Counted from the stretch's first letter, positions 10,407 to 15,556 are shown. The stretch: DNA of 64,000 bases from an uncultured Parachlamydiaceae bacterium (GCA_963838645.1 CAWIRV010000003.1:58578-122577); one strand, 5' to 3'. The notes: generated from the sequence alone by a model not told the origin. Translations and numbers: made by a program.

Positions 10407-10865
10407 TTAAGGAGACAAAATTGTAAAGGTGACCGTACGAGAGGTAATAGGCAAAACTCCTGCTAAAGGAGTTGCAGAAAACTGATAATTAATAGACAAG
10501 TTACTATAACTGCCAGTTGGAATATCTGTTACCAAATCGTTTGCTAAAGTCGATAGGGAAATTGCTCCTAAGCTGCTTGCTCCAGAGGGAGCTGCTAAAT
10601 TGACCATAAGAGTAGTATGAGAAGGAAGATTATTATCTAAATGGCCTGTAATTTTTCTCGTTCCATCCACGACGAGAGAATATACTGTAGATGAGTCGCT
10701 AACAGTATAAGGGGCTTGGCCTGCGTTAGCGCTATTGATATTTAAGTGACCTGGGGTGCCTGATATTGTAATAGAATCAGTTGCATGCGATAGCATATTC
10801 AATGAAAGATTTATCAAAATTAGAAGAAAGGGTAAATATTGTAAAAATAAGTTCCATTTCCTCAT
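10407..10865 (-). CDS. Secreted Ser/Thr/Ala-rich putative fibre (pilin-like) subunit A, paralog of 15059-15556
   Basis: Signal peptide. By-eye alignment with subunit B shows many shared blocks (LxINSAxAGxAP, KITGxxxxNxPSxTTLxxNLAAPxGAxSxG, DLVT, FSAxxxAGVL, RTxTFTI). The all-beta composition and terminal strand are reminiscent of chaperone-usher subunits. Confidence 0.55.
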   Translation of the reverse strand: MRKWNLFLQYLPFLLILINLSLNMLSHATDSITISGTPGHLNINSANAGQAPYTVSDSSTVYSLVVDGTRKITGHLDNNLPSHTTLMVNLAAPSGASSLGAISLSTLANDLVTDIPTGSYSNLSINYQFSATPLAGVLPITSRTVTFTILSP

Positions 10866-10970
10866 TCACTTACCTTTCTGCCAAATAAGTATCGGTTGCC
10901 ATAAACTAATCCTAGGTCAATTTTATACACAAACAACTCAAAAGTTGGAATGTAGCAAATTGAAAACTCT

Positions 10971-11024
10971 TGGATGATTGCAAGGGTTCGATATATTAAT
11001 TATCGACCCATTTGCAATCATCCA
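10971..11024. promoter_or_regulatory. Imperfect palindrome in the divergent intergenic region between subunit A and the chaperone-like gene
   Basis: TGGATGATTGCAA (10971-10983) and TTGCAATCATCCA (11012-11024) are perfect inverted copies. The location suggests an operator, but this is speculative. Confidence 0.25.
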
Positions 11025-11141
11025 ACATTGTGTATAATTCTAGTCAAAGCAAAATGATTACTAACAAAAAGATAATTGAATTTATTTTAATTTTCAAGTA
11101 TAAATTTATAATTCTACATGATCTTACGATAAGAGGATAAA

Positions 11142-11951
11142 TTGATAAGAAATTTGGCCGGATATTATACCTATTTGCTATTCCTGCTTATAGTTCCTAG
11201 CGATTTCTTGTATGCACTGCAGATCAAAATACCGGAATCAATGACTCAAGAATTTACTCTAATTCCTAATGAAAAATTTAAGAAATCCATTCCTCTCATT
11301 AATACTAGTGATAAGATTGCCAAAGTTAAGGTGTATCAATCTGATTATTTATATTATGCAAATGGCGAAAATCACTATTTAGATCCTGGAACAACTCTTC
11401 GTTCCAATGCCAATTGGATTAGAATTTATCCAAGTTATTTAGAAATCCCTCCGCATAGTCAAGCACATGTGACATATGAAGGGCAAGTCCCCACTCAAGA
11501 TGATCTTGCAGGTACTTTTTGGAGTCTTATTTTCATTGAACCGCAAGAAAAACCCATTGATCTATCTGATAGCAAAAACATGTTGGCTATCAACACGATC
11601 GTGCGTTATGGCTATCAAATTGTGACTCATTTGAGAAAAAAAGGAAAAGGCGATCTAAAAATAGTGGGAAAGACAGTGACCAAGACAGAAGGACAATATT
11701 TCTTTAATTTAGACGTAGAAAATATAGGTCAATCCTTGCTCGCTCCATCAGTTGTCGTCAATATTTTTGATATGAAGGGAAAAATCATTAATCAATTCAA
11801 ACAATCTAAAAGAAGAATTTATCCTTTCTGCTCTGTTAGGTATGAAATCCAATTATTTCACATAGAAACAGGTACTTATCAAGCACTTGTAGTTTTGGAC
11901 GCAGAGGAAAATCACTTATTTGGAGCCCAGTATATGCTTGATCTTCAATAA
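11142..11951 (+). CDS. Secreted two-domain protein, putative periplasmic fibre chaperone (PapD/CsuC-like layout)
   Basis: Signal-like N-terminus (TTG start). Two ~110-aa beta-rich halves with a pattern like the Ig-fold chaperone domains (...SIPLINTSDKIAKVKVYQ..., ...TFWSLIFIEPQE..., ...IVRYGYQIV...). Sits directly upstream of the large outer-membrane protein. No sequence-level match could be verified. Confidence 0.45.
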   Translation: MIRNLAGYYTYLLFLLIVPSDFLYALQIKIPESMTQEFTLIPNEKFKKSIPLINTSDKIAKVKVYQSDYLYYANGENHYLDPGTTLRSNANWIRIYPSYLEIPPHSQAHVTYEGQVPTQDDLAGTFWSLIFIEPQEKPIDLSDSKNMLAINTIVRYGYQIVTHLRKKGKGDLKIVGKTVTKTEGQYFFNLDVENIGQSLLAPSVVVNIFDMKGKIINQFKQSKRRIYPFCSVRYEIQLFHIETGTYQALVVLDAEENHLFGAQYMLDLQ

Positions 11952-14804: not shown

Positions 14805-14867
14805 CCTTAACTTTATAAAAATTTTTATTTTAGAAAAACTCTCCATGTTTTATGGATACAATTAGAA

Positions 14868-15034
14868 ATCACCTTACGCAAAAAGAGCGGCATTTGGACT
14901 GGGAAGCCCAAAGCCCCATGGTTAAATGCTCGTCAGTCACCCTATATAAAAGGAAATATAGGGTGACTGACGAGCATTTAACCATGGGGCTTTGGGCTTC
15001 CCAGTCCAAATGCCACTCTTTTTGCGTAAGGTGA
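14868..15034. repeat. Palindromic repeat family R2 (TCACCTTACGCAAAAAGAG... ends), long form
   Basis: 167-bp near-perfect hairpin-forming palindrome between the usher-like gene and subunit B. Related copies at 29177-29269 (short form) and 45255-45420 (long form), with a 14-nt remnant at 1387. Confidence 0.85.
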
Positions 15035-15058
15035 GTTAGAAGTTACCCATAAAGGAGA

Positions 15059-15556
15059 ATGGCTATGAAAAAAAAATACTTGGCTATTTTAATGTTGAGT
15101 GGATTTTTCTTCCATCAATTGCCTTTACAAGCATCTGATACGGCAACTCAGATTGTCACTATGTCCGTGAGTGCTATTAATGAGATTGCCATTAGCGGTT
15201 CCGCTCCTACTTTAACTATTAATTCAGCAACTGCCGGTTCTGCTCCTACACCTGCTTCTTCTTCTGGAATCTCTTATAGCATTACGACTAATGAAACAAA
15301 TAAGAAAATTACAGGATCTATTAATACAAATATGCCATCGAACACAACTTTGTCTGCTAACTTAGCTGCTCCAACAGGAGCTACAAGTGCTGGTAATACT
15401 ACTCTATCAACAACTGCAGCTGACCTTGTAACGTCTATCTCTAATGGGCAAGAAAGTGGTCTCTCTTTAACTTATACCTTTTCTGCATCCGCATCCGCTG
15501 GAGTTCTTTCTTCTTTTACTCGGACTGCTACTTTTACAATAGTCGATGGATCTTAA
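15059..15556 (+). CDS. Secreted Ser/Thr/Ala-rich putative fibre (pilin-like) subunit B
   Basis: Signal peptide ...LPLQA-SD. Paralog of 10407-10865, with an extra N-terminal alternating-hydrophobic segment TQIVTMSVSAINEIAIS. Preceded by the RBS AAAGGAGAA. Confidence 0.55.
   Translation: MAMKKKYLAILMLSGFFFHQLPLQASDTATQIVTMSVSAINEIAISGSAPTLTINSATAGSAPTPASSSGISYSITTNETNKKITGSINTNMPSNTTLSANLAAPTGATSAGNTTLSTTAADLVTSISNGQESGLSLTYTFSASASAGVLSSFTRTATFTIVDGS

Follow-up and report, generated by a model that had tools for sequence, protein, structure and literature searches.

Does a chlamydia-like bacterium carry the machinery for a surface fibre of the chaperone-usher kind? The question is raised by a four-gene cassette at positions 10407-15556 of a 64,000-nucleotide (nt; 64-kb) stretch of DNA, hereafter the window, from an uncultured Parachlamydiaceae bacterium (GCA_963838645.1, CAWIRV010000003.1:58578-122577). 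An earlier inspection of the sequence (the original prediction) had seen in it two paired subunits, a two-domain chaperone and a barrel with terminal β-sandwich domains. Few adhesive organelles are understood as well as chaperone-usher pili, which are catalogued by means of usher and chaperone sequence models. The cassette is missed by these models despite having the same three-part logic and predicted folds. We propose, with a probability of about 0.62, that the locus is a complete copy, in minimal form, of a fibre-assembly pathway that is widespread, has escaped annotation and operates in a chaperone-usher-like way.

The four genes of the cassette

All four open reading frames (ORFs) claimed for the locus were present. 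Subunit A (subA) lies at 10407-10865 on the minus strand and encodes 152 amino acids (aa), as determined by ORF calling and an hmmsearch with the subunit profile (E 1e-53). Subunit B (subB) lies at 15059-15556 on the plus strand and encodes 165 aa (hmmsearch with the same profile, E 4e-65); an ATG at 15065, which is preceded by GGAG 8 nt upstream and would give 163 aa, is the more likely start. Between the two subunit genes, both on the plus strand, are the genes for a chaperone-like periplasmic protein (11142-11951, 269 aa, with a TTG start and AGAGGA upstream) and for a large usher-like outer-membrane protein (BIG; 11970-14804, 944 aa). The strand of subA is thus opposite to that of the remaining cassette genes, which is an unusual arrangement. 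Ribosome-binding sites were seen at the genes of the locus. Signal-peptide-like N-termini were found on all four proteins, and no lipobox was found in any of them. The two small proteins had been described as a secreted paralogous pair with sequence blocks in common, and we found them to be 48% identical, with the blocks INSA.AG.AP, KITG....N.PS.TTL..NLAAP.GA.S and RT.TFTI in both.

Predicted fold and relatives of the chaperone-like protein

The 269-aa protein had been read as a two-domain chaperone of immunoglobulin (Ig) type, and structure prediction agreed with this. AlphaFold2 models were built from alignments of 118 sequences for this protein and 118 for the 944-aa protein. The 269-aa model (predicted local distance difference test, pLDDT, 90.2; predicted template modelling score, pTM, 0.81) showed a signal peptide and two β-sandwich domains (aa 35-134, nt 11244-11543, and aa 156-268, nt 11607-11945) joined by a variable linker. 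When the model was compared with the Protein Data Bank (PDB) using Foldseek, the top three matches were to WxLIP of Enterococcus faecium (9i25_C and 9i1y), with E-values from 1.5e-14 (9i25_C) to 2e-13 and TM-scores of 0.52-0.60. The next matches were about 30 chaperones of chaperone-usher systems from the alpha, classical and archaic classes, including CfaA, CsuC, Caf1M, FimC, SafB, DraB, CupB2 and YadV (E 2e-9 to 2e-7; target-normalised TM-score, TMt, 0.46-0.60).

Profile comparisons led to the same relative. A search of PDB sequences with the family profile gave 9i1y_A as the only significant match (E 1.5e-4 over ~175 residues), and hhalign aligned the family with eight WxLIPs from Gram-positive plasmids over both domains (E 1e-4, 58%, 219 columns). 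PF06030 (DUF916) was matched by three of the 118 family members when these were taken singly, and a Pfam and NCBIfam scan of the 269-aa protein itself gave no match. The nearest known relative of the 269-aa protein is therefore WxLIP and not PapD, and its family is a probable remote homologue of WxLIP (DUF916 plus DUF3324). Read as sequence positions only, R87 and R155-Y156 were invariant in the family, and a strand with the pattern GT(Y/F)WS.I.(V/I)E closes domain 1. In the cleft of PapD, the basic residues Arg8 and Lys112 anchor the C-terminus of the subunit, and the G1 strand is the donor.

WxLIP consists of two Ig-like domains and a membrane helix; the insertion of one of its strands into the WxL partner, as predicted by AlphaFold2, would be a chaperone-like act (Hassan et al. 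2023, PMC10599100). The 269-aa protein resembles WxLIP (DUF916/PF06030 plus DUF3324/PF11797; PDB 9i1y, 9i25) in that WxLIP is its best structural match and aligns with it over both domains in hhalign, and in that its gene directly follows one or more genes for small secreted β-rich proteins. Unlike WxLIP, it has no C-terminal membrane helix, ending one residue past the last strand of domain 2, and members of its family are 258-285 aa long, compared to 337-365 aa for WxLIPs. In eight WxL clusters from Gram-positive plasmids (L091-L098), the genes encoded an LPXTG protein, one to three copies of a small WxL protein, WxLIP and a large WxL protein, and the first part of this order paralleled the order of subunit(s) and chaperone in diderms.

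Predicted fold of the usher-like protein

The domain layout that had been claimed for the 944-aa protein, with two N-terminal Ig modules, a long β-rich region and two C-terminal modules of the carboxypeptidase-regulatory kind, was borne out by both Pfam and AlphaFold2. In the model (pLDDT 88.7, pTM 0.71), a signal peptide precedes two Ig-like domains (aa 28-130, nt 12051-12359, and aa 135-237, nt 12372-12680), which are followed by ~26 consecutive long antiparallel strands (aa 247-718, nt 12708-14123) and two C-terminal β-sandwiches (aa 723-817, nt 14136-14420, and aa 842-922, nt 14493-14735), all encoded on the plus strand. The longest non-strand stretch within aa 247-718 was a low-confidence loop of 26 aa (612-637). 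Pfam matched the C-terminal part to a SpaA/prealbumin-like family (E 1.4e-6) and, below threshold, to CarboxypepD_reg; Pfam and NCBIfam gave faint matches to Ig-like families near residues 146-210, and the motifs GKFVFSHLKPGLYHLWI and GMFFFNKISPGKWILLI quoted for the protein were present. The family profile gave sub-threshold matches only, in the middle region, to OmpG, a porin and an autotransporter barrel.

In the Foldseek comparison with the PDB, FimD and PapC ushers were found at ranks 1-6, 8-10, 12, 14 and 15, with E-values from 8e-16 to 1e-10 over 790-940 aligned columns, and the PapC pore alone also matched the model (E ~1e-6). Our statements about the closure, lumen and plug of the barrel are based on the DSSP string and Foldseek.

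The barrel could also belong to an outer-membrane uptake or surface-layer module, in which it would be a channel for a solute or polymer (TonB-independent, with SusC-like logic) and the other proteins would have accessory binding or capping roles. BtuB was among the Foldseek matches with the best TM-score for the barrel, and domains of the CarboxypepD_reg type also occur in SusC-like transporters. However, BtuB was found only at rank 39, and the ushers were ahead of all transporters by about eight orders of magnitude in E-value. No Pfam match to Plug or TonB_dep_Rec was found in the 944-aa protein, its model contained neither a plug-sized insertion nor an N-terminal plug, and its CarboxypepD_reg-like domains lie at the C-terminus and not at the N-terminus. 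The genes beside the cassette differ from locus to locus in the genomes surveyed below, and neither glycoside hydrolases nor transport partners are conserved among them. A proposal of carbohydrate utilisation for csc/WxL clusters, which appears in Siezen et al. 2006 (PMC1534035), was counted in favour of an uptake role, but taken together the evidence makes such a role very improbable.

Distribution and gene order of the cassette

A phmmer search of the window proteins against PDB sequences was empty, and word-indexed homologue searches with single sequences returned only four and two relatives, although these first few already had the small protein(s), a ~270-aa protein and a ~900-aa protein in order. 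A profile of five 269-aa homologues matched at least 974 clusters (90% identity), all of them "hypothetical" and without Pfam domains, and the named members came from Gemmatimonadaceae. For the 944-aa family, an exhaustive profile search found 1,734 representatives (clusters of 50% identity) at E<=1e-30, and representatives from this search served as the alignment for structure prediction.

From a scan of species-representative genomes, which yielded 190 proteins related to the 269-aa protein, we kept 80. The carriers of these 80 genome loci belong to Zixibacteria, Armatimonadota, Ignavibacteria, Bacteroidota, Rhodothermales, Elusimicrobia and Spirochaetes; to Desulfobacterota, Myxococcota, Planctomycetota, Verrucomicrobiota, Gemmatimonadota and Bacteriovoracaceae; and to Atribacteria, Aminicenantes, Bipolaricaulota and metagenome-assembled genomes (MAGs) labelled Bacillota/Clostridia. 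Cultured strains are also among them, namely Thiocapsa marina 5811 and T. roseopersicina DSM 217. We then surveyed 87 loci from more than 20 phyla using the three family profiles in an hmmsearch of six-frame ORFs. In essentially all loci that were not cut by a contig end, one to eight subunit genes were followed on the same strand by the chaperone gene, the barrel gene and, in turn, zero to four further subunit genes, and the barrel gene came directly after the chaperone gene in 77 of the 80 genome loci. The cassette is thus not a chlamydial oddity but is widespread in diderm phyla. The original prediction had allowed that the genes might never be co-located elsewhere; this fails because essentially every surveyed locus holds all three families.

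Some loci differed from the common pattern. The MAGs labelled Bacillota/Clostridia (L015, L020, L021, L023, L025-L027, L046) contained the full cassette including the barrel gene, which implies that these loci come from diderm Firmicutes lineages or from mis-binned contigs. Three loci (L004-L006, Logan SRR136946xx) formed a divergent branch with a barrel protein of 809 aa, in which ~130 residues of the barrel region are missing, and with a very divergent subunit (27% identity). The size of the barrel therefore seems to vary within the family, as the sequences of this branch suggest. In five loci (L002, L007, L043, L061, L080), the barrel gene was found in two ORFs, and these split genes could be due to frameshifts, pseudogenes or assembly errors.

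Two classes of subunits

The subunits of the surveyed loci fell into two classes according to their N-termini. Class S+ comprised 184 ORFs with the motif (Q/H)-x-V-T-hydrophobic-x-V, located 4-6 residues past the signal-peptide cleavage site, and the fractions of hydrophobic residues at successive positions of the motif (0.98/0.06/0.99/0.12/0.99, n=184) showed a strict alternation. Class S- comprised 75 ORFs that have no N-terminal alternating strand and begin at the next strand. Exactly one S- subunit was present in 73 of the 87 loci, and its gene was immediately upstream of the chaperone gene in 70 of 83. In nearly all subunits of both classes, the last conserved strand stops 3-5 residues before the C-terminus, and pilins of the usher pathway likewise have their last conserved strand near the C-terminus.

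Both classes are represented in the window. The extra N-terminal stretch that had been noticed in subB is real: it is the strand TQIVTMSV (aa 30-37, nt 15146-15169), and a strand of this kind was found family-wide in the S+ subunits. SubA belongs to class S-, as the columns of the N-terminal strand are empty for it in the family alignment. In polymers assembled by donor-strand exchange, an alternating N-terminal extension is present on all subunits except the tip subunit, which is incorporated first and can do without a donor strand. The distribution of S+ and S- subunits fits donor-strand polymerisation as a sequence pattern, and we propose subA as the putative tip or initiator subunit and subB as the putative polymerising subunit.

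The affinity of the subunits to archaic, SCPU or DUF4402-type systems suggested by the original prediction was not supported. In a Pfam hmmscan of 144 subunits, 25 families were listed and none was matched by more than one member; neither SCPU (PF05229) nor DUF4402 (PF14352) was among the 25, and no recurrent match to a FimA-like or any other Pfam family was found. Pfam and NCBIfam scans of subA and subB gave no match, and a search of the PDB with the subunit profile was empty. The cassette subunits are like SCPU and DUF4402 subunits in being small, Ser/Thr/Ala-rich, all-β, secreted and encoded beside an assembly machine, and unlike them in having no recurrent match to those or other Pfam families. 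WxL domains were also considered. An hhalign comparison of the 144 subunits with 12 small WxL proteins from Enterococcus, Melissococcus, Listeria and Bacillus plasmids reached 4.3% over the C-terminal 31 columns only, and the best local alignment paired the C-terminal sequence TVTYTI.. with TLTWTL.DAP. No conserved Trp was found in the subunits, and both Trp-x-Leu motifs are missing.

These comparisons bear on a second explanation of the cassette, in which it is a diderm counterpart of the Gram-positive WxL/Csc complex and does not polymerise. The WxLIP-like protein would then be an escort, and the barrel would export or anchor monomers or small hetero-oligomers, such as adhesins or binding proteins, for display on the cell surface. 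Three observations favour it, namely that WxLIP is the closest relative of the 269-aa protein in both structure and sequence, that small subunit genes also precede WxLIP in the eight Gram-positive loci, and that the best subunit/WxL alignment pairs the C-terminal motifs. However, homology between subunits and WxL domains is not demonstrable (hhalign 4%, no PDB or Pfam match), the subunits are without WxL motifs, and a model with no ordered polymer does not readily account for loci in which exactly one of up to eight paralogues lacks the strand. Further differences from the WxL/Csc system are that the cassette chaperone has no membrane anchor, that an outer-membrane barrel gene occupies the third position, where that system has a large WxL adhesin, that there is no LPXTG partner and that the hosts are diderm. 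We therefore consider a non-polymerising WxL/Csc-like complex unlikely, though it deserves to be kept in mind.

Proposed assembly pathway and comparison with the chaperone-usher pathway

For the preferred reading, a fibre-assembly pathway, we propose the following scheme. The four proteins would be exported by Sec. In the periplasm, the 269-aa two-Ig-domain protein would bind fresh subunits and hold them in an assembly-competent state, probably by lending them a β-strand, as PapD-like chaperones do and as is predicted for WxLIP with WxL domains. The 944-aa protein would form a large outer-membrane barrel of ~24-26 strands, whose two N-terminal and two C-terminal periplasmic β-sandwich domains would receive the chaperone-subunit complexes, and the subunits would polymerise at the barrel and be extruded through it. 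The strand-less subA would be first in and would end at the tip; copies of subB would follow, each inserting its alternating N-terminal strand into the preceding subunit. The predicted folds, their closest structural matches, the conserved gene order and the single strand-less subunit per locus are results of the analysis; strand donation, polymerisation, the order of assembly and the surface location are what we infer in this scheme.

The cassette shares its three-part operon logic with the chaperone-usher pathway (FimC/FimD/FimA, PapD/PapC, Caf1M/Caf1A, the archaic CsuC/CsuD and the alternative CfaA/CfaC). In both, the operon encodes several small paralogues that are secreted as subunits, a protein of two Ig-like domains for the periplasm, and a large outer-membrane barrel protein with periplasmic β-sandwiches, two of them C-terminal. 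The alternating N-terminal strand on the subunits, missing from one subunit per locus just as it is from a tip adhesin, is a further likeness at the level of sequence pattern. In contrast to the chaperone-usher pathway, there is no detectable sequence similarity to its components, and the phyletic range is much wider than the one known for the classical systems (Ignavibacteria, Zixibacteria, Gemmatimonadota, Elusimicrobia and others). Compared to ushers, the cassette barrel protein has ~26 strands instead of 24 and no plug insertion, and it ends in domains of the CarboxypepD_reg/prealbumin type. The N-terminal domains of the 944-aa protein are unlike the usher N-terminal domain, the place of which is taken by two CARDB/NEW3-like Ig domains. 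Finally, the strand-less subunit is a single domain, unlike a two-domain tip adhesin. The cassette has none of the sequence features by which the chaperone-usher family is defined.

Several results weigh against the proposed pathway. Neither Pfam models nor hhalign against FimC, FimD and FimA (<=1.1%) connected the cassette by sequence with any component of the classical chaperone-usher systems. PapD_N (PF00345) and PapD_C (PF02753) were matched by none of the 118 members of the chaperone-like family, and Usher (PF00577), PapC_N and PapC_C gave no match to the 944-aa protein at E<=1; the last three models were likewise missing from the precomputed Pfam lists of its relatives. The hhalign comparisons with E. 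coli proteins reached a probability of 0.4% for the 269-aa profile with FimC, 1.1% for the 944-aa profile with FimD and <=1.1% for the subunit profile with FimA, each being a weak test with a single-sequence template. The TM-scores of the 944-aa model with ushers were low (0.27-0.37), superposition of the barrel alone was no worse with BtuB (TMt 0.39) than with the PapC pore (0.25-0.30), and no plug-like insertion was seen in the DSSP string of the barrel region. Also, WxLIP, the nearest relative of the chaperone, comes from a system that is not known to form polymers; and the incomplete Ig fold that the subunits would need is putative, as are the fibre itself and its expression. Because the TM-scores are low and BtuB fits the barrel no worse, we regard the 944-aa protein as usher-like in the architecture of its model, homology with ushers being unproven.

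How, then, did the idea of a chaperone-usher logic fare? It is largely supported, with corrections: the predicted folds, the Foldseek matches to ushers and chaperones and the co-location of the genes agree with it, and the closer relationship of the chaperone to WxLIP and the lack of a plug qualify it. The transmembrane barrel is similarly supported by ~26 long strands and the usher matches, and qualified by the fit of BtuB. Three findings had been named as ones that would count against the original prediction: no barrel and no Ig-like chaperone fold in the models, confident placement of the genes in unrelated families, and no co-location in other genomes. None of them held, because the models matched chaperones and ushers and the genes lay together in essentially all of the 87 loci; profile searches of Pfam, NCBIfam and the PDB placed none of the genes confidently in an unrelated family.

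No description of the cassette was found in the literature searched, the coverage of which was incomplete, and two of the three cassette families have no Pfam or NCBIfam model. Both of these families can be defined from the alignments of the present analysis. The tubular pilus of cyanobacteria is a different system that is restricted to that group (PMC12397347). We put forward only tentatively, and with considerable doubt, the claim that the cassette represents an unrecognised chaperone-usher-type fibre class across many phyla with a chaperone homologous to the Gram-positive WxLIP. If this were true, one ancestral strand-complementation system would have given rise both to the WxL/Csc surface clusters of Firmicutes and to the diderm usher pathways, with the monoderm branch having lost the barrel and acquired a membrane anchor. 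Donor-strand assembly would also be far commoner than annotation suggests, in Chlamydiae-like bacteria, Ignavibacteria, Zixibacteria, Gemmatimonadota and others. If fibres are made, the cassette would encode an unannotated adhesin or biofilm organelle in many environmental and host-associated diderms and a candidate attachment structure on the surface of the organism of the window. It would also provide a mechanistic relative for the WxL/WxLIP clusters, the mechanism of which remains debated. Since each operon has, as a rule, one strand-less subunit, the order of assembly can be predicted in a simple, testable way.

Local arrangement and genomic surroundings

The gene order in the window differs from that of its closest relative (L099), in which the S- subunit, S+ subunit, chaperone and barrel genes follow one another on one strand and the S+ subunit is 65% identical to subB. 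The window contains one S- subunit, one S+ subunit, the chaperone gene and the usher-like gene, and all ORFs are intact. Because L099 keeps the four genes on one strand, the layout in the window, with subA inverted and subB behind a palindrome, appears to be an intact minimal set whose genes have been rearranged locally.

This palindrome (14866-15037, without strand) is a near-perfect 172-nt element that sets the usher-like gene apart from subB. It has 82-nt arms that are 98% complementary and an 8-nt loop, is GC-richer than its flanks and occurs as a single copy within the window. Its predicted RNA fold is very stable (dG -157 kcal/mol, z -24). From its sequence, it could be an insertion resembling a miniature inverted-repeat transposable element, or an mRNA hairpin involved in transcript processing or stability. 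A match to a sigma-70-like promoter (TTTGCA-16-TATAAT, 11011-11038, plus strand), which is a consensus match only, was found ~100 nt upstream of the chaperone gene, and the number of promoter-like matches in the region was not above the shuffled expectation.

The original prediction had placed the locus in a stretch rich in insertion sequences (IS) downstream of a tRNA-Pro gene, and this setting was confirmed. The tRNA-Pro(GGG) gene is at 8479-8555, and IS982, IS4 and IS66 transposases were found around the locus. On the left, a decayed transposase fragment (8685-9029, minus strand), identified by ORF calling and inverted repeats I1 and I3-I6, has the opposite orientation to the IS copies on the right. 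The right flank holds decayed, tandemly duplicated IS copies (15761-17785, plus strand), identified by direct repeats D1-D5 and ORF translations. The duplication includes a 287-nt unit with 99% identity and repeats of 230, 202 and 116 nt with 98-100%. The locus is thus bracketed by decayed members of a single IS family that face in opposite directions, with 8725-9020 being 79-86% complementary to 16232-17587, a layout that resembles a composite transposon as judged from sequence. A broken Fic/DOC gene (9749-10291) adjoins subA and consists of two neighbouring short ORFs with Fic_N and a truncated Fic domain.

These surroundings raise the question of whether the cassette is a decaying remnant in this genome, rearranged by IS elements and perhaps no longer expressed as a working system. 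The decayed IS copies on both flanks, the adjoining Fic pseudogene, the difference in arrangement from L099 and the palindrome in front of subB would be expected of such a remnant. However, none of the four ORFs is truncated, their signal peptides and conserved motifs are preserved, ribosome-binding sites and a promoter-like site accompany them, and subunit genes downstream of the barrel gene are found in many other loci. We therefore judge it highly unlikely that the cassette is a remnant, and the intact minimal copy of a fibre-assembly pathway remains our preferred reading of the locus.

Horizontal acquisition, which had been called plausible, is possible because IS copies flank the locus. 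It is not established because the GC content is 0.34-0.36 both within and outside the locus, and this comparison gave no compositional sign of horizontal transfer. The window itself is chromosomal, as it carries ung, recA and genes for farnesyl pyrophosphate (FPP) synthase and a P-type ATPase.

Two other regions of the window were of interest. A 3,262-aa ORF (17912-27700, minus strand) has a DUF3638 P-loop region (aa 2144-2353) as its sole recognisable domain, and the rest of this giant protein is without annotation. The region 38466-41350 on the minus strand encodes a 557-aa PilM-like protein (PF11104, E 9e-8, with a weak match to the Amuc_1101 family), followed by ORFs of 207 aa and 195 aa that had no family match, and it may encode a type IV pilus or an assembly platform resembling that of type II secretion systems.

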